37,469 nt of DNA from a virus (Duplodnaviria; Caudoviricetes), in the IMG/VR virus record IMGVR_UViG_3300031772_000118, positions 1 through 37,469 of that record, one strand, 5' to 3'. The notes beneath the pieces are model-generated. The model saw only the letters and a list, made by a program, of their open reading frames with translations. It was not told the origin of the DNA and searched no databases. A program made the position numbers and the translations under genes. Shown in pieces: positions 3,379-25,816 of the stretch. Every line of letters starts with the position of its first letter. The first letter of the stretch is position 1.

Positions 3379-3400
3379 AGAGGGTAAAACCTCTTTTTTT
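3379..3400 (+). terminator. Intrinsic terminator after the endolysin
   Basis: AGAGG-GTAAAA-CCTCT followed by a T-run. Confidence 0.75.
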
Positions 3401-3427
3401 GTTGTCTAATATAACTATTACTAAAAA

Positions 3428-3815
3428 AAAAGTAACAGCTCAAAACATACTTTCTGCAAGTTATGAATTTAATAAAGTCATAACTGTAATTAAGAATGAG
3501 CCTATAAGCCAATCTTCAAGTAAGGTCCTTGAGGAACTCACTTGCGAAATTGTAAGAATAAATGTAACATTAACTCAATTTGAAAATACTAAATTCAAAA
3601 ACAAGATATTTAATGATTATAGATTGTCTTTAAGGATTGCAAGTCATTTAGCTATGGTAAGCAAATGCGCTAGAGGTAATGAAGCTAGAGATTACTTCTA
3701 CGAATGTGAGCAACAACTAATAAAGCTAACAGAATCAAACTTAAAACTATGCTCTATGCTTTTAACTCACAAAGATAAATTAAACCTAACAAAAGTAACA
3801 GCTCGAAACAAGTGA
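3428..3815 (+). pseudogene. AntA/AntB antirepressor fragment (silent cassette) flanked by 20-bp direct repeats
   Basis: Encodes DYRLSLRIASHLAMVS..GNEARDYFYECEQ but lacks the N-terminal SARELH motif and an RBS. 3705-3795 matches 4294-4384 at 88/91 nt. AAAAGTAACAGCTC(A/G)AAACA occurs at 3428-3447 and 3791-3810. Confidence 0.7.
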
Positions 3816-3915
3816 TTATTTTTATGATGTAGAACAACAATTTTAGCATTACTTATTTACAAGATAGACAATTCATGTTATACTTAGCATATAAAAGAAA
3901 GGGAGGTAACATTAT

Positions 3916-4620
3916 ATGTTATTACAAGAATTAATAAGAATAGATGAAAGAGGGCAAAGATTTATAAGTGCCAGGGATTTGCACGAGTGGATATGTGTAT
4001 CAGACAATTTCAGTAGATGGCTCGACGGTAGTCTATATTCTGCAAGATGGGGATTTAAAAAATTCGTTTTAAGAGAAGAAAAATGCCAAGAAACTAGTAA
4101 ATATGCTAGAGAAGGGTCACGCCCCCTTACTATGAAAGCGAAGGAAGTTTATGTGAAACTTGCAAAAAACAAAGGGACTACTTTCGAAAGGAAGTTATTC
4201 AAGGATTATGAATTAAGTTTTGAATTAGCTAAAAACTTAGCGATGGTCAGCGGTTCAATAAAAGGACAAGAAGCTAGGGATTATTTCATTGAGTGTGAGC
4301 AACAACTAATAAAGCTAACAGAATCAAACTTGAAACTAGGTTCTATGCTTTTAACTCACAAAGATAAATTAAACCTAACAAAAGAATTATTTTACCCAAT
4401 CCTTGAGCAACTAGGAGTATTGATAACTAAAAAGAATGCAGTTCATCAGATGATAATTAAAAGTATATTCGGTAAGTATGAAAATGTAAACAAGCTTACT
4501 ATGATAACAGAAGAAGATATAGAAAACTATAAGAAATTAGCTATAAACTTACAAAAAGATACAGTTTACTTTGAAGACAAAAATCAAATTACAGTTTGGG
4601 ATATAATAAAAGAAATATAG
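3916..4620 (+). CDS. AntA/AntB-family antirepressor-like DNA-binding protein
   Basis: Motifs ISARDLHEW..NFSRW and DYELSFELAKNLAMV..GQEARDYFIECE; own promoter (TAGACA..TG.TATACT) and RBS ggaggt. Confidence 0.85.
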   Translation: MLLQELIRIDERGQRFISARDLHEWICVSDNFSRWLDGSLYSARWGFKKFVLREEKCQETSKYAREGSRPLTMKAKEVYVKLAKNKGTTFERKLFKDYELSFELAKNLAMVSGSIKGQEARDYFIECEQQLIKLTESNLKLGSMLLTHKDKLNLTKELFYPILEQLGVLITKKNAVHQMIIKSIFGKYENVNKLTMITEEDIENYKKLAINLQKDTVYFEDKNQITVWDIIKEI

Positions 4621-6858: not shown

Positions 6859-7013
6859 AAATTAGAGCGGGATTTAGCTTGGCTATGGTAATAGCTTTTG
6901 TATCAAGTATGAGCAAACAAACAATGGAAGGAAATATAGCTGGTATACTATTTGTAGGACTTGCTATACTGCCTTTCATAGGAAATATAATAAGAAAATT
7001 AAAAAGGTGGTAA
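6852..7013 (+). CDS. 53-aa two-TM membrane protein (not in the ORF track)
   Basis: MLEIRAGFSLAMVIAFVSS..GILFVGLAILPFIGNIIRKLKRW; RBS gaggg; overlaps the upstream stop. Confidence 0.55.
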   Translation: MLEIRAGFSLAMVIAFVSSMSKQTMEGNIAGILFVGLAILPFIGNIIRKLKRW

Positions 7014-7018
7014 TAAAA

Positions 7019-8296
7019 ATGAATAAAGATTTAGAAGTAGTCAAAAAGGATGGTTGGGCGCTAAAACATGTGAAAGAACAAACAGAAGAAATTTGCTTAG
7101 AGGCAGTCAAAAAGGATGGTTGGGCGCTAAAACATGTGAAAGAACAAACAGAAGAAATTTGTCTAGAGGCAGTCAAAGAGAATGGTTGGGCGCTAGAATA
7201 TGTAAAAGAACAAACAGAGGAAATATGTTTAGAGGCAGTCAAACAAGATGGTAATATTTTGAAATATGTAAAAGAACAGACATTAGAAATTTGTCTAGAG
7301 GTAGTCAAACAGGAAGGTTTGGCGCTAAAATATGTGAAAGAACAAACAGAGGAAATGTGCTTAGAGGCAGTCAAAGAGAATGGTTTGGCGCTAAAATATG
7401 TGAAAGAGCAAACAGAAGAAATGTGTTTAGAAACAGTCAAACGGGATGGTTGGGCGCTAAAATATGTGAAAGAGCAAACAGAAGAAATTTGTCTAGAGGC
7501 AGTCAAACAGAATGGTTGGGCGCTAGAATATGTAAAAGAACAAACAGAGGAAATTTGCTTAGAGGCAGTCAAACAGGAAGGTTTGGCGCTAAAATATGTA
7601 AAAGAACAAACAGAGGAAATGTGCTTAGAGGCAGTCAAACAGAATGGTTGGGCGCTAGAATATGTAAAAGAACAAACAGAGGAAATTTGCTTAGAGGCAG
7701 TCAAACAGGAAGGTTTGGCGCTAAAATATGTGAAAGAACAAACAGAGGAAATTTGCTTAGAGGCAGTCAAACAGGAAGGTTGGGCGCTAAAATATGTGAA
7801 AGAGCAAACAGAAGAAATGTGTTTAGAAACAGTCAAACGGGATGGTTGGGCGCTAAAATATGTGAAAGAGCAAACAGAAGAAATTTGTCTAGAAACAGTC
7901 AAAGAGAATGGTTTTGCTTTAGTACTTGTAAAAGAACAGACATTAGAAATATGTTTAGAGGCAGTCAAACAAGATGGTAATATTTTGAAATATGTAAAAG
8001 AACAGACATTAGAAATTTGTCTAGAGGTAGTCAAACAGGATGGTAATGCTTTGGGATATGTAGAAGAAAAATATCTTAATGCTGTTAAAGAAAAATTAGG
8101 ATTAATACACTTGAGAAGAAATAAAAGACACAGAAGTTTGACAATAGATAAGAAAACTAAAAAATGTTGGATAGGTTGCCAACACGGAATCTCTATTGAA
8201 GAACTAAGATATAGAATATTAAACGAAGATGGTGGGCTTGAAAGGAATAAACATAGACAATATTACTTAGATTTCCTAGAAGAAAATAATTTATAA
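7019..8296 (+). CDS. DUF4116-like 22-aa tandem-repeat protein with a conserved C-terminal domain
   Basis: About 16 copies of CLEAVKxxGxALxYVKEQTEEI; start at ATG 7019 after aaggtgg. Confidence 0.85.
   Translation: MNKDLEVVKKDGWALKHVKEQTEEICLEAVKKDGWALKHVKEQTEEICLEAVKENGWALEYVKEQTEEICLEAVKQDGNILKYVKEQTLEICLEVVKQEGLALKYVKEQTEEMCLEAVKENGLALKYVKEQTEEMCLETVKRDGWALKYVKEQTEEICLEAVKQNGWALEYVKEQTEEICLEAVKQEGLALKYVKEQTEEMCLEAVKQNGWALEYVKEQTEEICLEAVKQEGLALKYVKEQTEEICLEAVKQEGWALKYVKEQTEEMCLETVKRDGWALKYVKEQTEEICLETVKENGFALVLVKEQTLEICLEAVKQDGNILKYVKEQTLEICLEVVKQDGNALGYVEEKYLNAVKEKLGLIHLRRNKRHRSLTIDKKTKKCWIGCQHGISIEELRYRILNEDGGLERNKHRQYYLDFLEENNL
7031..8070 (+). repeat. 66-bp coding tandem repeat, about 16 units
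   Basis: Recurring ttagaggcagtcaaa...gcgctaaaatatgtgaaagaacaaacagaagaaa with 66-nt periodicity. Confidence 0.95.
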
Positions 8297-8578: not shown

Positions 8579-9622
8579 ATGTTAGAAGTTTTTGAGAGCA
8601 GAAAAGGTCACAAGATAGAAGTTAAAATTGACAAAGAAGAAATATTTACAGAAGTTGAAAGCGTTGCTAAAGGCTTAGGTTTAACTAGAGAAAAGAACGG
8701 AAAAGAATATGTTAGATGGGATAGGGTAAATAGTTATTTAAAAGAGATTACCCAATCGTGGGGAAACGGAAAAGAGATTACCCAATCGTGGGGAAAAGGT
8801 GATTTGATAACGGAAAGTCAATTTTACTTGCTTGCAATGAAAGCTAATAATGATATAGCTAGAATATTTCAAACTTGGGTATGCGTTGAAGTGTTACCAA
8901 CTCTAAGAAAACAAGGTTGCTATATTTCAAGTAGCATAACAGAAAAGCAAATAAAAGAAGCTAAGAAGTATCTAGACATCACTCAAATAAAGAAGATAAT
9001 GAAAACTTGCTTACCAACTGACTTAGAGCATAATTACAAATTAGCAAAAGTTGGACTAGGCAGAAGAGGAAAAGAACAACTAGATTACGAGGTTATAAGA
9101 ATACTAAGGAATAGAGTTGTTAGTATAGAAGGACAAGACTTACTATACAAGATAATAGATAAGAGAAATAAAGCACTAGATAGGAAAGTTAAGAAGATTG
9201 ATAAAGTAGTATTGGTTTTAGAGGAGAATATAAAGTTAATCCTTCCTTCTGAAACAGAATATACAGAAGTGGAAACATATGGGTTCAGTGTGAATGCAAT
9301 GTATATAGCTAGAAAAGAATACGAAGAAGTTAAAATGAGAAGAAGTGCAAAATATAACAATTGGCGCAATAACTTTCCATTTGAGCAACTGCCTAATGTA
9401 GACCATATAGACTTCACCAAAAGAGTTAATGTGTGGCTAGAATTTGACCACTTGAAAAAATTCGACTGCCATAATCTGCACAAGAGTATAATTGATACAG
9501 CGTGTAAGCACTGGGGGGTGAATGATAATAATGTTCAGCTTATGAGGTGTGTTACTAGGAAGTATGTTAAAGACGTTAAAGATGCTAGGATTTATATATG
9601 CATAAAGCAAGGAAAGTGTTAA
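8579..9622 (+). CDS. Bro-N antirepressor-like protein fused to a C-terminal RusA-like domain
   Basis: Bro-N motifs VAKGLG..YVRWDRVNSYL..ITESQFYLLAMKANN..FQTWVCVEVLPTLRKQGCY. The C-terminus SVNAMY..W..DCHNLHKSIID..NDNNV resembles the RusA DxDNxxK..DD motif. Confidence 0.75.
   Translation: MLEVFESRKGHKIEVKIDKEEIFTEVESVAKGLGLTREKNGKEYVRWDRVNSYLKEITQSWGNGKEITQSWGKGDLITESQFYLLAMKANNDIARIFQTWVCVEVLPTLRKQGCYISSSITEKQIKEAKKYLDITQIKKIMKTCLPTDLEHNYKLAKVGLGRRGKEQLDYEVIRILRNRVVSIEGQDLLYKIIDKRNKALDRKVKKIDKVVLVLEENIKLILPSETEYTEVETYGFSVNAMYIARKEYEEVKMRRSAKYNNWRNNFPFEQLPNVDHIDFTKRVNVWLEFDHLKKFDCHNLHKSIIDTACKHWGVNDNNVQLMRCVTRKYVKDVKDARIYICIKQGKC
8741..8796 (+). repeat. In-frame 30-nt tandem duplication (KEITQSWGNG KEITQSWGKG)
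   Basis: aaagagattacccaatcgtggggaaa at 8741 and 8771. Confidence 0.9.
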
Positions 9623-9778: not shown

Positions 9779-10669
9779 ATGAGTAAAAAATATGAATTAT
9801 TAGAAAGAGAAGAAAATGGATTGTGTAGAGTGAAAGCTTTAAGAGATTTTAAATTTGTAAAAGCTGGAGATATAGGCGGACATGTAGAAAGCGAATATAA
9901 TTTAAGTCATGAAGGGGATTGTTGGGTATATGCAGATGCAAGAGCATATGGAAACGCAAGAGTATATGGAAACGCAGAAGTGTATGGAAATGCAGAAGTG
10001 TATGGAAATGCAGGAGTAGGTGGAGGCGCTCATGTATATGAAGATGCAGAAGTATATGGAAACGCAGAAGTACATAGAAATGCAAGAGCATATGGAAACG
10101 CAAGAGTATATGGAAACGCAGAAGTGTATGGAGATGCAAGAATATATAGAGATGCAGAGGTATATGGAGATGCAGAAGTAAGTGGAAATGCAGAAGTAAG
10201 TGGATATGCAAGAGCATATGGAGATGCAGAAGTATATGGAAACGCAAGAGTATATGGAAACGCAGAAGTGTATGGAGATGCAAGAATATATAGAGATGCA
10301 GAAGTGTATGGAAATGCAGAAGTGTATGGAAATGCAGAAGTAGGTGGATATGCAAGAACATATGGAGATGCAGAAGTATATGGAAACGCAAGAGTATATG
10401 GAGATGCAGAAGTAGGTGGAAATGCAAAGATAAATAATGGTAGAATTATTGGAATCGTAAATTGCGAGTATAAAAAAATAAACTTTATACAGTGTTCGCA
10501 AAGAATTATTACAATTTACACAGATTTGGAAGATGTTGTAAGATGTAACATAGGATGCCAACTCGAAATGACATTATTCGGATTGAAACGAAGAATGATT
10601 GAAGATGGTGGAATGAATGCACACAGACAAGAATACTTAGATTTGATGACTATGTTTACGAAATCTTAG
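9779..10669 (+). CDS. Hexapeptide-repeat (left-handed beta-helix) phage protein
   Basis: N-terminus RVKALRDF..VKAGDIGGHVESEYNLS..CWV, then more than 25 VYGNAE/VYGDAR repeats (18-nt period, about 9922-10430) and a C-terminal IGCQ domain; own TTGACA-17-TATACT promoter. Confidence 0.85.
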   Translation: MSKKYELLEREENGLCRVKALRDFKFVKAGDIGGHVESEYNLSHEGDCWVYADARAYGNARVYGNAEVYGNAEVYGNAGVGGGAHVYEDAEVYGNAEVHRNARAYGNARVYGNAEVYGDARIYRDAEVYGDAEVSGNAEVSGYARAYGDAEVYGNARVYGNAEVYGDARIYRDAEVYGNAEVYGNAEVGGYARTYGDAEVYGNARVYGDAEVGGNAKINNGRIIGIVNCEYKKINFIQCSQRIITIYTDLEDVVRCNIGCQLEMTLFGLKRRMIEDGGMNAHRQEYLDLMTMFTKS

Positions 10670-10786: not shown

Positions 10787-11215
10787 ATGTATTATCCTAA
10801 TCAACAATACAATCCTTACGATGCTAATATGATAGCACAGCAAAGACTTCAACAAATGCAACAAGCTTATCAACCGCAACAAATGCAACAACAAGCACAA
10901 ACGCAACAAGTTCAACCGACTGCACCGACTGTGAATTGTAAAATAGTGACTGGTTTAGATGAAGCAAAAGCAAGTACGATAACATTTGATGGTCAACCAA
11001 ATTTATTCCTTGATACGACAAATAACTTAATTTATATAAAAAAACTTAATATGGATGGAACGGTAGGTACTTACACATATAAACTAGATGAAACTCCTAA
11101 TGCACAAGTACAAACTGATTATGTCAGCAAACAAGAATTTAACAATTTGCAAGAAAAGATAAGTAAATATGAAGTAATGTTTAACGAATTAATGGGAGGT
11201 AATAAGAGTGAATAA
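10787..11215 (+). CDS. Gln-rich hypothetical protein, first gene of the accessory module
   Basis: YNPY/Q-rich low-complexity N-terminus, small beta domain (IYIKKLNMDG), C-terminal coiled coil; RBS aggggtg. Confidence 0.8.
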   Translation: MYYPNQQYNPYDANMIAQQRLQQMQQAYQPQQMQQQAQTQQVQPTAPTVNCKIVTGLDEAKASTITFDGQPNLFLDTTNNLIYIKKLNMDGTVGTYTYKLDETPNAQVQTDYVSKQEFNNLQEKISKYEVMFNELMGGNKSE

Positions 11216-11510
11216 TATACTAGGAAACTTATTCAGCGGAATGGGTAGTAATAACATACTAGGGAACCTAATGGGTGGTGGAAATAATCCTCTATCTATG
11301 ATAATGGGAATGATGGGAAACGGTGGATTGAATCCACAAGGCTTAATGAAACAATTTGGAAACGACCCTAACTTCCAGCAAGCACAACAAATGCTAGGGG
11401 GTAAAAATCTACAAGAGCAACAACAAATAGTTATGAATTTAGCCAAAGAAAGAGGCATCGATGTAAATCAACTTCAAAATATGGCTAAACAATTCGGTAT
11501 CAAGCTTTAG
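11208..11510 (+). CDS. Met/Gly/Asn/Gln-rich small helical protein
   Basis: Duplicated NNILGNL; NP..QQAQQML..IVMNLAKERGID; overlaps the upstream stop. Confidence 0.8.
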   Translation: MNNILGNLFSGMGSNNILGNLMGGGNNPLSMIMGMMGNGGLNPQGLMKQFGNDPNFQQAQQMLGGKNLQEQQQIVMNLAKERGIDVNQLQNMAKQFGIKL

Positions 11511-11546
11511 GGCTTTATATAAATATATTTATAGGAGGTAGCTAAA

Positions 11547-12188
11547 ATGGCTATGGCAGAAGGAATGGGTGTAATGCCTGTATACAATTTAGACGGTAAC
11601 AAAAACGACGGAGGAATGGGTGGTAATGGATTTATCTGGATTCTATTCTTATTCGTGCTTTTAGGCTTTGGAAAAGATGGTTTTGGTGGAGGAAATGGTT
11701 CTCAAAACGCTTCACAAATATCAAATGACTTCTTAAGTAATCAAGTAGGGCAAGGGTTCGCTCAAGTAACAAACCAAAACTTCGCTACACAAAAAGACAT
11801 ATACCAAGGATTCGCGGGAATAGGAAATGCAGTTTGTGATTCTACTTTTGCGTTAAACAACTCTATTAAAGATGGAAATTACGCATTAATGTCAAAATAT
11901 GCAGAATGTTGTTGTGAGACAAATAGAAATATCGACAGCGTTAGATATGAAGCAGAGAGAAATACTTGCGCTATAACAAACGCTATACACGCTGATGGAG
12001 AAGCTACAAGAGCGTTGATGAATGCTAATACAATGCAAGATTTAAGGGATAGATTGACTAGTGCAGAACTTGGGTTAAGCCAACAAGCGCAAACAGCTAA
12101 TATAATTTCTCAAATAAAACCTTGTCCAATTCCTGCATACCAAACTTGCAATCCATGGGCAGCGCCTAGCGGTTGCGGAGTATGCTAA
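11547..12188 (+). CDS. Gly-rich TM plus coiled-coil plus Cys-rich protein of unknown function
   Basis: GGNGFIWILFLFVLLGFG, ECCCETNR, PCPIPAYQTCNPW..GCGVC; RBS aggaggt. Confidence 0.85.
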   Translation: MAMAEGMGVMPVYNLDGNKNDGGMGGNGFIWILFLFVLLGFGKDGFGGGNGSQNASQISNDFLSNQVGQGFAQVTNQNFATQKDIYQGFAGIGNAVCDSTFALNNSIKDGNYALMSKYAECCCETNRNIDSVRYEAERNTCAITNAIHADGEATRALMNANTMQDLRDRLTSAELGLSQQAQTANIISQIKPCPIPAYQTCNPWAAPSGCGVC

Positions 12189-12365
12189 TTTTGTTAGAGC
12201 GGACCCGTTATGTACCAGAAAAAAAAATATAAGGTAGCATTAGGAACGGACCCCGTTCATTATTCTTTAAGATATCTTGTTAAATGTAGTTCTAAGAATT
12301 ATACATTAACTAGCATTTCTAATGTTAAAGCTACAAGAGGAGTAATAACAGAAGTTGAAGAATAA
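12187..12365 (+). pseudogene. Possible 3' remnant of a deleted module gene
   Basis: NFVRADPLCTRKK, then a frameshift in an A9 run, then YKVALGTDPVHYSLRYLVKC..EVEE*; no start codon or RBS. Confidence 0.3.
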
Positions 12366-12549
12366 CGAAGTAGAACTGTTGACATTATTTACAAGCTTTC
12401 TTAGTGTCTTGAACTATTCTGAAAACTTAAAACAAACATCTAATGATGATTTGATGTCAGAACTCAAAGAAAATCACGATACTAAGTTAGTCAAAATAAT
12501 AGAGCAGAATGATAAGATAATAGAATTATTGAGGGGGTTAGCAAAATAA
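12355..12549 (+). CDS. Small hypothetical protein (hydrophobic N-terminus, coiled coil)
   Basis: TTG start after gaggag; coupled to the next gene by TAATG. Confidence 0.6.
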   Translation: MKNNEVELLTLFTSFLSVLNYSENLKQTSNDDLMSELKENHDTKLVKIIEQNDKIIELLRGLAK

Positions 12550-12917
12550 TGGATATGATGAAATTGAGAGAAATTAACGATAAGATAATAGATAAAGCAG
12601 CAATGAAGATTGAAATGTCAATCGATAAAGGGGATTTTGACTGCGAATGTTTTGAAGTGCTAAGCGATGCTATAAACACAAAACACAAGTTGCACGCTAT
12701 TGAAAAAGAGGGAAAAGCTAAAGAATATAAAGCTATGTCTATGGAAAATAAAGGGAAAACAGAATTTGAGGAATATGTGTGGAAGGTTATAAACAAAGGG
12801 GAATATGACCTACACGACATTATGATTATCTTAAGTGAACATATGGAAGATATAAAAATACTTCAGCCGAGGTTTTACGACAAAGTTATGATGAAACTAA
12901 AGGAGTTATGCAAATAA
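12549..12917 (+). CDS. Hypothetical alpha-helical protein
   Basis: 122-aa ORF, translationally coupled within the operon. Confidence 0.75.
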   Translation: MDMMKLREINDKIIDKAAMKIEMSIDKGDFDCECFEVLSDAINTKHKLHAIEKEGKAKEYKAMSMENKGKTEFEEYVWKVINKGEYDLHDIMIILSEHMEDIKILQPRFYDKVMMKLKELCK

Positions 12918-13429
12918 TGAAAGATTATGCAAAAACAGAAGGTTTGAAACTTATGCAAAGAGCTTTAGACACATTTGCACATGGAGAAATGCAACATGAT
13001 GTTTGGTCAAGAAAAGCACATATGATGAATATGCAAGGTCTTAAAAGATGGCATAAACTTCAATCAGAAGAGGATAGATGCAGTAGAATTCACTTACAAC
13101 ATTATATAATTGACATGTTTGGGGTTAACTTAGAACCTAAATGGGACTATAAGGAAATAGAAAGTGATACACTTGAAAAACTTATAAATGATTATTTAAA
13201 TTGGGAAATAAGTGTTTATTCTGAACTTGCTAATTTAGGAAATTCTTTAATGCTACTTGAAATGCCTTGTGAAGCAGCAATGGTATCAGGACCTATCAAG
13301 AGTGTCAGAAAAGAGATAGAGAAAGCCAGAAGAATGCTAAATGATTATGAGTATGTAAATTGGGATAAGGCTTATATTAAGCTGCAAGACAAGAAACTTC
13401 ACGACAGAGTTAAATGTATGGAAAAGTAA
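12908..13429 (+). CDS. Ferritin-like four-helix-bundle protein
   Basis: GEMQH..MQGLKRWHKLQSEED..HLQHYIID and WEISVY..KEIEKA resemble ferritin helices with E/H metal ligands; followed by a terminator at 13434-13460. Confidence 0.6.
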   Translation: MQIMKDYAKTEGLKLMQRALDTFAHGEMQHDVWSRKAHMMNMQGLKRWHKLQSEEDRCSRIHLQHYIIDMFGVNLEPKWDYKEIESDTLEKLINDYLNWEISVYSELANLGNSLMLLEMPCEAAMVSGPIKSVRKEIEKARRMLNDYEYVNWDKAYIKLQDKKLHDRVKCMEK

Positions 13430-16278: not shown

Positions 16279-16908
16279 ATGCTACTAAGTGAATTAATAA
16301 GAAAAGATGAACAAGGGAATCAATATGTAAGTGCAAGAGAGTTGCATAAATGGTTAGGAAACAAAAAGAGATTCAGCAATTGGGATGACCAAGTTTTGTC
16401 AAACCCTAAATTTAAGTTTGTGGCTATGACTGACTTTGTTCATAGTAACCTAGAGGTTACAATAGGAAAAGGGAATAAAAGGATATTCAAAGATTATAAT
16501 ATGACTTTAAGGATGGCGTCTCATGTTTCGATGGCTACATTGCTAGATAAAGGAATTGAAGCAAGGGATTATTTTTATAACGCAGAGCAAGAACTAGCAA
16601 CACAAAGAGAAAACAATTTAAAAGCTTTTGCTCAACTGTTCAAACATGCAAATAAATTAAAGTTTACAAAAGAAGAATTATATCCCATCTTAGATTTACT
16701 TGGAATAAAAAGGTCGGAAAGAAGAAATATACATGACACTATAAAAAGAAAGCTAATAGGTAAATATGAAAATGTAACCTTGATAGATGACTTTAGTTCA
16801 GAAAGTTTTAAGAGGGACTATGCTGAATTCGCATTGAAAGAAATAAAAGTTAATGAAGATATAATAAATGATTTTGTTCAATTAAGTTTTGAAAATCTAG
16901 AGGTGTAA
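16279..16908 (+). CDS. AntA/AntB-family antirepressor-like protein (paralog of 3916-4620)
   Basis: VSARELHKWL..RFSNW and DYNMTLRMA..GIEARDYF; C-terminus homologous to the 3916 gene (KL..TKE..YPIL). Confidence 0.85.
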   Translation: MLLSELIRKDEQGNQYVSARELHKWLGNKKRFSNWDDQVLSNPKFKFVAMTDFVHSNLEVTIGKGNKRIFKDYNMTLRMASHVSMATLLDKGIEARDYFYNAEQELATQRENNLKAFAQLFKHANKLKFTKEELYPILDLLGIKRSERRNIHDTIKRKLIGKYENVTLIDDFSSESFKRDYAEFALKEIKVNEDIINDFVQLSFENLEV

Positions 16909-16997: not shown

Positions 16998-17552
16998 ATG
17001 AATGAAACAAAAATGTTTGAAGAGAATAAAGGGCTTATAATGTTTACGGCTAAAAAGTACAATCTTGTTGCAAAATGTTACAATTATCTACTATTCGATA
17101 TAGATGATTTGTACGCATCTGGGAGTATTGGACTATTGAAAGCTATAAGGAATTTTGATGAATCTAGAGAAATTAAGTTTAGCAGTGTGGCAGTTTCTTA
17201 TATACTAAATGAAATAAGAAACGCTTATAGAAACACATTGAAAACTACAAATAAATCTAGGATGCAATTCAACAATAGCGTTATTAGTATAAACTCTTAT
17301 GTTTCTAAGAGTGAGGCGGATTGTGACTTTTCGGAAGTGATTGGGAAAGATGATGACGCGCTAGGGATTAGCGAGACGATAGACATTCTAAACAGATGCT
17401 TAGAAAGAGAAGAGTTAGAAATAGCTACATTAAGAGCAGAGGGTATAAGTAGCAGAGAAATAAGTGAAATATTGGGAATAAGCGTTTCGTTTTTATATCA
17501 AAAGTTTAACAATATAAAAGGCAAAGTAAGAGGAGAGTTATGTCATGAATAG
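16998..17552 (+). CDS. Sigma-70-family sigma factor resembling sporulation sigmas (SigE/F/G/K-type region 2)
   Basis: DDLYASGSIGLLKAIRNFDESREIKFSSVAVSYILNEIR, plus a region-4 HTH SREISEILGIS. Confidence 0.85.
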   Translation: MNETKMFEENKGLIMFTAKKYNLVAKCYNYLLFDIDDLYASGSIGLLKAIRNFDESREIKFSSVAVSYILNEIRNAYRNTLKTTNKSRMQFNNSVISINSYVSKSEADCDFSEVIGKDDDALGISETIDILNRCLEREELEIATLRAEGISSREISEILGISVSFLYQKFNNIKGKVRGELCHE

Positions 17553-18534
17553 TTTGATAAGAAAAGGCGTAAAAGAAGTTAGTGTATTTGATGCAGGGCT
17601 ATCACAAGAACTTGCAGAAAAGCTTATATTAAGTAAAGCGAGAATAAGAGAGTTTTACGATGCAAACAAAGGGAGAGTACATTGCTCATTTAGTGGAGGA
17701 AAAGATAGTACAGTTTTGCTTCATCTTTGTAGGTTAGTAGAGAAAGATATAAAAGGTGTTTGGTGTGATACTAGGATGGAATATCCGGGTGTTGCTAAGT
17801 TCGCAAAATCAGTTGATAACATAGAAATAGTTAAAAGCAAAACGACATTTCATCAAATATTAATGAGATATGGATATCCTGTTATTTCGAAGAAAATAGC
17901 TAGAATGGTGTATGATAAACAGAATCCAACTAACAAAAATAAAAGAACTAATGAACTTAGTGATTCAAAATTTTTTGAAGGTGATAAAGGGACTATAAGG
18001 AATAGTTTCTACCTTTCGGACAAACACAAGCACTGGGTTGATAGTGAGTTTAGATTAACAAATAAATGCTGCTTGCTCATAAAAGAAAAACCTCTTATAG
18101 ATTATGCTAAGAAAACTGGCGAAGGTGTTATAATAGGAATGTTAGCAGAAGAGAGTAGGAATAGAAAAAAAGCACTTGAAAACGGATGCATCAATTGGAA
18201 AAAGAATACTTGCAATCCTTTACGCGAATGGACAGAACAAAATATATTAGAATATATAAGCAAAATGAAATTAAGATACGCTAGTGATTACGGATGTCTA
18301 GTATACCAAAATAGAAAGTATGAATTTACGGGGGAGCAAAGAACGGGGTGTATGGGGTGCTTAATGGGCAATCCAAAAACAGTACACGAAAGGCTTGATA
18401 GAATGGAAAAGACTTACCCAATGCATTTCAAGGCTCATATAGAAGGGGGTGAGTTCAAAAGTGGAAAGTTATATCCCAAACAAGGATATGGTTACAGAAA
18501 GTTGCTTAAATATATAGAACAACAATACAAATAG
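17545..18534 (+). CDS. Phosphoadenosine phosphosulfate (PAPS) reductase-family protein
   Basis: PP-loop SFSGGKDS, and KCC..K.KP and RTGCMGC Fe-S-type cysteines. Confidence 0.85.
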   Translation: MNSLIRKGVKEVSVFDAGLSQELAEKLILSKARIREFYDANKGRVHCSFSGGKDSTVLLHLCRLVEKDIKGVWCDTRMEYPGVAKFAKSVDNIEIVKSKTTFHQILMRYGYPVISKKIARMVYDKQNPTNKNKRTNELSDSKFFEGDKGTIRNSFYLSDKHKHWVDSEFRLTNKCCLLIKEKPLIDYAKKTGEGVIIGMLAEESRNRKKALENGCINWKKNTCNPLREWTEQNILEYISKMKLRYASDYGCLVYQNRKYEFTGEQRTGCMGCLMGNPKTVHERLDRMEKTYPMHFKAHIEGGEFKSGKLYPKQGYGYRKLLKYIEQQYK

Positions 18535-22507: not shown

Positions 22508-22552
22508 AACCCCTTACACCCAAACTAAAAGTAAGAAAAGGAGGTGGTTTTG

Positions 22553-23956
22553 ATGAAGATGATACCAAGAGATATTTTAATAAGAAAGGCTAAACAAGAA
22601 AAAGCTAAAAGGAATTTTTATTACTATTGCAAATTAATGCACCCTAATTTCTATAATGAAAAGAGGGGGTTTTTGGAAATATTATGTGATAAACTTCAAG
22701 AGTTTTATTTTAATGACGATGAATTTATGTTGGTAAATCTTCCTCCGTAGCCACGACATGGGAAGTCATTCAGCTGTCAAAACTTTGTAGAATGGATATT
22801 AGGACAGAATCCTATTGAAAAGATTATATCGGCATCTTACGGACACGACTTATCAAAGACTTTCTCTAAGAAGTGTAGAAACGCAATAGAAGAGGCAGGC
22901 CTTGACGATAGGATAGTATATAGTGATGTATTCAACAATACTAAAATAAAGTTCGGTAGTGCCGAAGCCACCAAATGGCAGACAGACGAATCAACTCAAA
23001 CTAACTACCTAGCAACATCACCAACCGGGAGTGCGACGGGGTTTGGTTGTACTTTTATGGTAGTAGATGACTTGATTAAAAATGCTTATGAAGCTAACAA
23101 CGAAACAATATTAGAAGGGCATTGGAACTGGTTCACGAATACTATGCTATCTAGACGAGAAGGCAAGAAAAAGGTGCTAATAGTTATGACTAGATGGTCT
23201 AGTAAAGACTTAGCTGGAAGAATAATAGAATACTGTGAAGAAGAAAACTTATCTTATTCTCATGTGAATTTCAAAGCAGAATTAGGGAGTGGCGACATGC
23301 TATCCGATGATATATTTAGTGCTAAAGACGCAGAGAAGGCTAAAAAACTTATGGGTGAAGATATATACAGTGCTAACTATAATCAAGAGCCTATCGACTT
23401 AAAAGGTAGCCTATACAGTAATTTACTGACATATGAAGAGTTGCCAAGAGATAAAATTATTACAATAGATAACTATACTGATACTGCCGACAGAGGACAA
23501 GATTATTTATGCTCGATTGACTACGCTATTGATAGACAAGGTTATTGCTATATACTAGATGTTATTTACACGCAGGAATCTATGGAAACGACAGAAGAGA
23601 AAGTTGCAGCGATGATAACTAAGGATTTTGTTAATTTTGCTCACATAGAAAGTAACAATGGAGGAAGAGGTTTTGCTAGAAATGTTAAAGAGTTGTGCTT
23701 AAAGAAGAACAATAGGCATACATCAATTAAACCGTTCCATCAGAGTAAAAATAAAGAGTCTAGGATATTAACGGGAAGCACAGGCGTAATGCAAAATATA
23801 CTATTCCCAAGCAAGTGGAAACAACTATTCCCAGAGTTCTACAAGAGTGTTATAAGCTATCAGAGAACTGGTAAAAATAAGCATGATGACTCAGTGGACA
23901 CGCTAACTGGAGTATATGAGAAAAGTGAAAAATACAGAAAAGGTAAAAGGAGATAA
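22553..23956 (+). CDS. terL: Terminase large subunit with an internal in-frame TAG (22748-22750)
   Basis: The 22544 and 23057 ORFs share a frame with only one stop between them. Motifs: VNLPP*PRHGKS (Walker A), MVVDD (Walker B), VMTRW, YNQEP, TDTA and KHDDSVD (nuclease). Confidence 0.9.
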
Positions 23957-25742: not shown

Positions 25743-25816
25743 GCAAATATAGCCAAGTGGTAAGGCAAAAGTCTGCAAAACTTTGACCGCGGGTTCGAAT
25801 CCTGTTATTTGCTCCA
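25743..25816 (+). tRNA. tRNA-Cys(GCA)
   Basis: Acceptor stem GCAAATA/TATTTGC, D-arm GCC..GGC, anticodon arm AAAGT-CTGCAAA-ACTTT, T-arm GCGGG-TTCGAAT-CCTGT, U73 discriminator and encoded CCA. Confidence 0.92.

Follow-up and report, generated by a model that had tools for sequence, protein, structure and literature searches.

The window analysed here, a stretch of 37,469 nucleotides, is a whole phage genome of ~37.3 kb and the sole contig of G000, and its 127-nt terminal repeat identifies it as a closed circle. Profile matches reveal a gene set of Firmicutes type, with terS, terL, portal, head, tail, lysis and replication genes; nearly all genes of the window lie on one strand. The gene for the large terminase, terL, occupies one frame from the ATG at 22553 to 23956 and is interrupted only by the TAG at 22748-22750, which stands inside the Walker A motif: positions 22739-22765 read CTT CCT CCG TAG CCA CGA CAT GGG AAG (L-P-P-stop-P-R-H-G-K), and the frame is open for 71 codons upstream of the stop and for 401 codons downstream of it (Table 1). 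With the stop read as X, the translation gives a full-length match to terL family phrog_30251 (E 2e-158, residues 7-451), and phrog_8148, a 64-aa family labelled 'terminase small subunit', matches the N-terminal piece (N-piece) of terL alone. A search across the contig found no second terL. The P-P-stop-C-Y-N word occurs a single time in the window, both strands having been checked, and no further stop between synonymous codons was found in any real gene of the window, the two other candidates being antisense.

Table 1. Features of the terS-terL locus and of the gap within terL
Feature	Position	Strand	Basis or remark
terS, small terminase subunit, 131 aa	22112..22507	+	phrog_606; Pfam GP3_package, E 2e-10
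terS-terL spacer, 45 nt, with strong ribosome-binding site at 22539-22547	22508..22552	+	likely scar of a lost HNH gene
terL 5' part, 65 codons, ending L-P-P	22553..22747	+	phrog_8148; likely a cassette-borne copy of the 5' end of the gene
Second Pro codon CCG, putative take-off codon	22745..22747	+	sequence; CCA/CCG in relatives
In-frame TAG, first half of the 6-nt gap	22748..22750	+	sequence; TAG 48, TAA 6, sense 0 in 54 viral contigs
CCA, putative landing triplet, second half of the gap, presumed undecoded	22751..22753	+	CCA, CCT, CCG, CTT or CTA in relatives
terL 3' part, R-H-G-K-S to end: remaining ATPase and nuclease domain	22754..23956	+	profile matches; L001 model compared with solved large terminases
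59-nt block up to the gap, for which X9 and X11 have no difference listed	22694..22752	+	contig comparison

The site was compared in the contigs X1, X9 and X11, the small-share sediment runs X2-X5 not covering it. Logan contig X1 (depth 95) is identical to the window over 1901 nt around the site, but as X1 is possibly the source of the window record it does not count as independent evidence. X9 and X11 (depth 46 and 11), which come from two samples of another study, retain the six bases with no alignment gap and are changed at 4-5 positions within the 16 nt downstream of them. These contigs speak against an assembly slip as the source of the gap. Relatives fetched with the C-terminal half (C-half) of the protein read x-P-P-[R/Q]-x-x-K in 43 of 43 cases, two codons shorter and with no insert, the nearest of them being the intact L001 at 80% identity. 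In 40 intact proteins at 23-79% identity to L001 the 12-residue motif is free of indels throughout, and its Pro preceding the Arg/Gln is invariant in all 40; among 120 near homologs, 119 are free of indels in the motif and one is without the region, while 111 have the same motif. An earlier note on this DNA had described terL as split by Pro-stop-Pro inside Walker A, and the lesion as two extra codons relative to the family motif; the first point is confirmed by the sequence and by the single terL in the complete genome, the second by the uniformly shorter relatives. In a model of the intact L001 protein the motif forms a loop between strand and helix, and a fold search with this model retrieves solved large terminases; a sequence search of the PDB found no terminase. 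We conclude with high confidence that the gap is real, conserved and functional. The best fold match of the L001 model is 8dgc, a terminase bound to the defence sensor Avs3, and one may speculate that reduced TerL output might matter for defence sensors of this kind.

Distribution of the gap among phage terminases

Viral contigs were scanned for N-x-P-P-NNN-P-R-H-G-K with any middle codon allowed. All 54 matches have a stop at the middle codon (TAG 48, TAA 6, sense 0); as 52 of them come from one Veillonella-type clade, they do not represent 54 independent events. When TGA and TGG were also permitted at this codon, neither was found in terL. A metagenome scan that covered 43 of 64 parts returned 34 terL matches, one of them the window's own record, and each of these likewise carries a stop (TAG 30, TAA 4). 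In a junction-blind set, consisting of the 80 loci nearest a Veillonella C-half, 46 have an insert, always with a stop, and 34 are intact; the carrier sets of 54, 34 and 46 partly overlap. Chance matches outside terL were removed before counting (87/121 in the metagenome scan and 13/67 in the TGA/TGG-permitting scan; 4/8, 2 of 4 new ones and 1/2 in further scans). The pattern scans required CCN after the stop, so that other landing triplets were missed and are not bounded by these numbers. Longer Pro-to-Pro gaps were sought at 1-30 nt with the CAT codon only, and the 22 matches all lie outside terL.

Beyond these sets, the gap is found in prophages of Aerococcus (with CCT as take-off codon), Veillonella (two) and Peptoniphilus, in each case as the genome's only match, and in the distant terminases L343 (43% identity) and L331 (25% identity). 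Two largely overlapping random samples with ~400 Clostridia genomes yielded no new carrier and 13 other matches, as did 401 genomes of the Aerococcus order (no new carrier, 13 other matches); one clostridial family (341 scored genomes, 31 places) contributed a single new carrier, L521, and a second clostridial family (121 genomes) none. In all, at least seven lineages carry the gap. CCN-stop-CCN, the conservation of which in related phages had been named as a check for this locus, recurs in further lineages; the gap sequence varies and includes CTT and CTA. On a quick tree of 43 C-halves, which leaves out the dairy phages, L331 and L521, the gap needs six gains or losses, at least five of them forced by well-supported branches, and the window's sister is the intact L001.

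Of the 120 best-matching short relatives of the N-piece, 68, forming 19 groups at 70% identity, have x-P-P as their last residues and a further 12 have P-P-R, with the reservation that the query favours x-P-P ends, that some ends are maybe contig ends and that the DNA is unread for most. Other short terL N-pieces, known as protein only, end with P-P-R-H-R (P0292, P0295, P0299, P0305, P0306 and P0363) or P-P-R-H (P0017, P0319 and P0346), and a further four (P0312, P0359, P0369 and P0399, again protein only) read P-P-R-H-R and are then out of frame. Such pieces, stopping or leaving frame after the Walker A His, suggest that further gap or +1-shift geometries may occur in the family. The terL of phiCD119 (L346:201-1746), elsewhere split into ter1/ter2, was considered as a candidate and rejected, its Walker A being intact. 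The terL of phiCDHM19 (L348:443-2842) encodes 799 aa, compared to ~460-470 aa in relatives.

The gap is also present in cultured dairy phages. The junction of phage 49801 has 56 matching GenBank records, 20 of them at least 95% identical, GenBank and RefSeq copies being counted twice. In all nine dairy junctions read, the third triplet is a Leu codon, CTT or CTA: CCG TAG CTT in Tuc2009, 49801, D2950, CHPC926, 98203 and 98204, TAG CTA in 9874, and TAA CTT in D6890 and D4840. CHPC926, 9874, Tuc2009 and 49801 have one terL each, with one TAG, and TerL is an essential protein. In the part of PMC4493119 consulted, TerL was not among the proteins mutated. CHPC926 is reported to yield 2e9 PFU/ml (PMC5311409, Table 3), phages 49801, 98101-4 and 98202-4 to have been plaque-purified twice and sequenced 50-558 fold, and Tuc2009 to form plaques (both PMC5301393). 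Plaque-forming carriers are found among phages of two host genera, with Lactococcus lactis and Streptococcus thermophilus as hosts. Across 58 distinct genes of Veillonella type, dS lies at 0.8-1.06, while dN/dS amounts to 0.081 before the stop and 0.046 after it; the split terL of Veillonella type is under purifying selection.

Cultured carriers are annotated as having a 64-residue small terminase followed by a large terminase. PHROG 8148 and the 64-residue 'TerS' of Tuc2009, 9874, CHPC926, 49801 and the 981xx/982xx phages correspond to the N-piece of TerL (L469-L474, L494-L496), and the true terS of the dairy carriers is the upstream gene labelled unknown, hypothetical or transposase. These annotations call for correction, the annotated TerL of most dairy carriers being without its Walker A. 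The GenBank TerL of Tuc2009 is marked 5'-incomplete and begins right after the stop, from which it can be seen that the missing start had been noticed.

Proposed decoding across the gap

The best explanation of these observations, and one that we regard as quite likely on the basis of the sequence comparisons, is that ribosomes hop over TAG-CCA to yield a normal Walker A, and that the gap is the 3' end of a homing cassette. The ribosome would stall at Pro-Pro with the stop in the A site, upon which peptidyl-tRNA-Pro would detach from CCG, move on by six bases and pair anew with CCA, translation continuing at CGA. Nine bases would then give one proline and the product would possess the normal P-P-R-H-G-K-S loop, whereas ribosomes that terminate would release a 65-residue fragment. 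This peptidyl-tRNA-Pro hop giving L-P-P-R-H-G-K-S had been put forward in the earlier note; it finds strong support in the sequence comparison, from which we infer the hop itself. The exactly matched landing codon that was part of the same proposal is, on the other hand, unneeded, as follows from the CTT/CTA triplets of the plaque-forming dairy phages. The take-off codon in Veillonella-type genes is CCA or CCG in 58 of 58, and here too CTT or CTA serves as third triplet in 2 of 46 loci. Because a Leu codon may stand where the protein needs Pro, the landing triplet is probably not decoded. We take all landing triplets, of the Pro and the Arg type (see below), to be cognate or one G:U pair off for the take-off tRNA, the anticodons being those of general knowledge, and a landing triplet that pairs with the take-off tRNA is what a P-site hop predicts. 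Landing on CUU or CUA needs a G:U pair at the middle codon position, which counts against the hop; re-pairing in the P site is described as quite permissive (bioRxiv 10.1101/2022.08.31.505936).

The stall signal is plausibly the motif's own Pro-Pro. According to work cited in bioRxiv 10.1101/751305, bacteria under-use Pro-Pro-stop, and termination at it stalls in E. coli; the same preprint reports no effect of a C-terminal proline on expression in Mycoplasma pneumoniae. All seven Pro-type lineages have CCC or CCT as first Pro codon, apart from a few CCA loci, as compared to 13 of 48 intact representatives. No conserved stem-loop or Shine-Dalgarno-like helper was found at the loci analysed, and unassisted stop-hops are described as low-level events (bioRxiv 10.1101/2024.12.09.627546), which counts against the hop. 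We think it reasonably probable that this natural in-frame stop-hop is the smallest working bypass element, consisting of a stop and one near-cognate triplet, that it has been made repeatedly by homing endonucleases targeting Walker A, that RNA structure is unneeded because Pro-Pro stalls, and that it has gone unrecognised in laboratory phages such as Tuc2009, whose 64-residue 'small terminase' would be the termination product.

The hairpin with the stop at its apex, as proposed in the earlier note, is indeed the predicted fold (-5.6 kcal/mol), but it is not exceptional compared to synonymous shuffles (z -0.6, p 0.27) and is not conserved in detail. A conserved take-off stem-loop is absent from the 10 loci analysed (core z -1.3 to +0.7 against synonymous shuffles). 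Low z values came up in 2 of 40 folding tests (L331 5' side, L169 wide window) and are not common to lineages, other lineages folding differently. A 4-bp CCRU/AYGG pairing is possible in most lineages; it is codon-forced and is broken in 14 of 245 redundant loci. No shared anti-SD match was found near the site in 8 loci.

A sister form of the gap, of 7 nt and frame-changing, is situated one codon later in the same loop in two clostridial prophages, phiCT9441A (CGA-TAA-T-CGC, L347:1690-1735; also L349) and L521 (CGA-TGA-C-TGC, L521:1679-1725). As the frame changes, readthrough would be unable to rescue these forms, whereas a hop would keep the Arg. In both cases the second frame contains an AUG upstream, a possible restart that counts against the hop. 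GenBank splits the phiCT9441A gene in two.

The alternative that survives best, though improbable, is leaky termination, in which a near-cognate tRNA reads the stop and TerL with two extra P-loop residues is active enough. Such readthrough fits with the gap being in frame, with the C that follows the stop in every 6-nt lineage, which is a weak termination context, and with an AlphaFold model having Gln at the stop that folds normally overall (pLDDT 92.5). Yet one base change would turn the stop into a sense codon, and none is found in the 54, 34 and 46 partly overlapping carriers; since the stop is kept although a single substitution would open the frame, the two-residue-longer loop is probably useless. 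The absence of motif indels from 40 diverse intact proteins and from 119 of 120 near homologs, the use of both TAG and TAA, and the frame change in the 7-nt forms equally argue against readthrough, and the local model confidence with the insertion (85, versus 96-97) may point, weakly, in the same direction.

We judge it very improbable that terL is a gene in pieces, with the 65-residue piece and a separately started C-terminal chain assembling into TerL. Free-standing homing endonucleases are known to fracture genes (T4 39/60, nrdA; bioRxiv 10.1101/2022.08.31.505936), annotators split these very genes, and the 7-nt cases offer their second-frame upstream AUG. Genes with the 6-nt type, however, have no start codon between the stop and the Walker A lysine, their first in-frame start varies by lineage (~100 codons on in the window, 9-55 in others), no assembly tails have been added, and a restart in L521 would place Cys at the loop's Arg position.

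Hardly credible, too, is removal of the six bases from the RNA, either as a micro-intron or by trans-acting splicing. A group I micro-intron obeying the U/G boundary rule had been offered as an alternative at the outset, but the U before and the G at the end of CCGUAG hold in the window alone: among 58 Veillonella-type genes the preceding base is C in 50 and the stop is TAA in 8, so the boundary bases are not kept and the proposal fails. The same cut in CTT alleles would turn the invariant Pro into Leu, splicing gives no reason to retain an in-frame stop, and a conserved fold is absent. A search of the genome for intron RNA families found none, nor was the group I set of U before, G at the end and core encountered. 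Among the public runs with the window sequence no RNA run is listed, and these runs are silent on expression.

We consider a dead gene or assembly error, with carriers depending on a helper's terminase, highly improbable: the window is one uncultured contig, but independent contigs, purifying selection and plaque-forming carriers in two host genera speak against decay, and so do the truly decayed terL copies L362 and L491, which have several stops each, L362 being without the insert. Reassignment of TAG (code 15) or its suppression by a tRNA in the window phage has a negligible probability in spite of the TAG recoding reported for gut phages (bioRxiv 10.1101/2021.08.26.457843), because in the window TAG ends 19 of 50 genes and the only tRNA is Cys-GCA, which implies the standard code, because neither avoidance of TAG, nor many in-frame TAG, nor a CUA tRNA was found there, and because relatives use TAA too.

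Origin of the gap and relation to known bypass systems

In 49801, D2950, D4840 and 98203 a NUMOD4-HNH gene separates the split terL from the true terS; it is shortened in 98204 and D6890, and only remnants are left in Tuc2009 and 9874. L521 has an intact HNH gene, 61% identical, upstream of its 7-nt gap, and the 11 phage records of GenBank whose HNH is at least 60% like the L521 protein are, all 11 of them, carriers annotated with a split terL. L343 contains a different HNH at the same position before its split terL, and a search with this protein found itself and one locus without terL among its ORFs. The intact phages P335 and TP901-1C have no HNH and their terS overlaps terL. Compared to these two, dairy carriers are 58-66% identical in the 180 nt leading up to the gap and 90-96% in the 60 nt that follow, and between the window and L001 protein identity is 58% in the N-piece and 81% in the C-part, intact pairs at that distance averaging 75% (range 52-83%). 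The terS overlap is present in 44 of 49 representatives of the intact alleles, and 9 of 10 scored carriers (5/6 lineages) have a spacer instead. X9 has 612 extra nt in the terS-terL spacer, which brings it to 657 nt and is known by length alone; the HNH-bearing spacers of L521 and 49801 measure 657 and 637 nt, respectively. The window has no HNH gene and no detectable HNH remnant, and L331 has neither HNH nor spacer, which counts against a cassette. No HNH was seen in the Veillonella clade, with its dS near 1.

The HNH gene directly upstream and the similarity to intact alleles that resumes at the gap point to a homing cassette like that of T4 MobA/gene 60. It is likely that a mobile cassette brought in the gap as its 3' end; ahead of it the cassette would have comprised the gene of an HNH homing endonuclease, a new ribosome-binding site and a diverged copy of the 5' end of terL. 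By analogy, the nuclease would no longer find its target in a conserved Walker A disrupted by the gap, and the carrier would be protected; both the cleavage by the nuclease and the immunity of the gap allele we infer from this parallel. The window phage likely lost the nuclease gene and kept the gap. Spread of one cassette over all hosts was considered and rejected, for the N-pieces of different carrier lineages do not cluster, and the cassette has probably been rebuilt several times. A homing-endonuclease cassette accounts better for the origin of the gap than does the throttling of TerL considered in the earlier note. That the gap outlives the nuclease may be due to lasting immunity, to the rarity of clean deletion or to useful throttling; that it persists after nuclease loss by tying TerL supply to release-factor, EF-P or tRNA-Pro status we regard as a tentative and rather unlikely idea. 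In Veillonella phages, comparison of L412 with L424 and L426 reveals a 5' terL segment (~-240 to +300) swapped as a block between gap-bearing and intact clades. Small HNH proteins of the HK97 gp74 type are needed for cos cleavage. Such a cofactor role was considered for the HNH proteins found here and rejected, these being NUMOD4-HNH proteins of 188-191 aa that are deleted in Tuc2009 and 9874, with CHPC926 appearing pac-type as described in PMC5311409.

The terL gap resembles the gene 60 bypass and the MobA cassette in its working but is not a member of that system. In T4 gene 60 a 50-nt bypass occurs together with the MobA HNH cassette (bioRxiv 10.1101/2022.08.31.505936, citing Bonocora et al. 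2011). As there, the take-off codon is followed by a stop, in the window and in all carriers, and the landing triplet, directly before the resume codon, pairs with the take-off tRNA, the non-synonymous triplets needing one G:U. Shared as well are an upstream HNH, present in relatives and absent from the window, the nuclease being often lost and the gap kept, a diverged copy of part of the host gene, with DNA identities of 67-81% in T4 and 58-66% in the present case, and an element that ends at the landing codon. In contrast to gene 60, with its gap of 50 nt, the terL gap measures 6 nt in frame, or 7 nt in the sister form; no take-off stem-loop, mini-SD or AU-rich stretch was found here; Pro or Arg is involved and not Gly or Asp, and a landing triplet may deviate by one G:U at position 1 or 2. 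The host gene is a terminase of Firmicutes phages and not a topoisomerase of T4-like phages, the nuclease is NUMOD4-HNH or phrog_374 HNH, and the host gene is not otherwise split.

In synthetic E. coli stop-hops, as in terL, matched codons flank the stop and nine bases give one amino acid (PMC5009743). Those hops are reporter-made and low-level, whereas the terL arrangement is natural, conserved and situated in an essential gene; the section of this 2016 review that treats hopping knows of no natural in-frame case. UUA-led candidate bypass has been described for Streptomyces phage phiHau3 and two prophages (PMC10732093). Like the sites described here, these are short gaps (7-10 nt) within a conserved region of the large terminase of a phage, with bypass deduced from intact homologs, but they are led by a hungry UUA codon, change the frame, are proposed to be regulatory, occur in 3 of 100 genes and concern another terminase, and the account given in PMC10732093 describes no homing endonuclease. 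A stop and not UUA leads the gap in all carriers read. The byps of Magnusiomyces mitochondria are inserts skipped in translation that also tolerate an imperfect landing match, and differ in their length of 27-55 nt, in having an unused sense codon in the A site and in their mitochondrial ribosomes (PMC5009743; bioRxiv 10.1101/2022.08.31.505936). A literature search of mostly open papers, with supplementary ORF tables outside its scope, found no account of this terL gap.

Very few cases of natural programmed bypass are known, and the terL gap is a candidate with exact in-frame stop-hop geometry, in an essential gene under purifying selection and in at least seven lineages. If true, it would be a natural case of a decoding trick described so far in synthetic test genes only, it would show the minimal signal for a ribosome hop as well as the looseness of P-site re-pairing, and homing endonucleases would gain a general route into conserved motifs, beside introns and inteins. 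Culturable carriers and near-identical intact controls (P335, TP901-1) make the hop testable.

The remainder of the window contains several further features. The tRNA-Cys(GCA) gene is at 25743-25816, between portal and head genes. No integrase was found in the window (20 + 14 + 13 proteins scanned). Three anti-repressor-like genes (3399-4620, 8579-9622 and 16279-16908) are accompanied by a similar 138-aa ORF, and a sigma-factor-like gene (16998-17552) is followed by a PAPS-reductase-like gene (17545-18534). At 10787-13429 there are five Gln-, Gly-, Met- and Asn-rich genes that match no Pfam family, and next a 173-aa protein of phrog_17879. A DUF4116 repeat protein of 429 aa and a YdcK-type beta-solenoid of 296 aa, both repeat proteins (7007-8296 and 9779-10669), have similar C-terminal tails resembling E-x-G-G-x-x-x-x-x-H-R-Q-x-Y-L-D.
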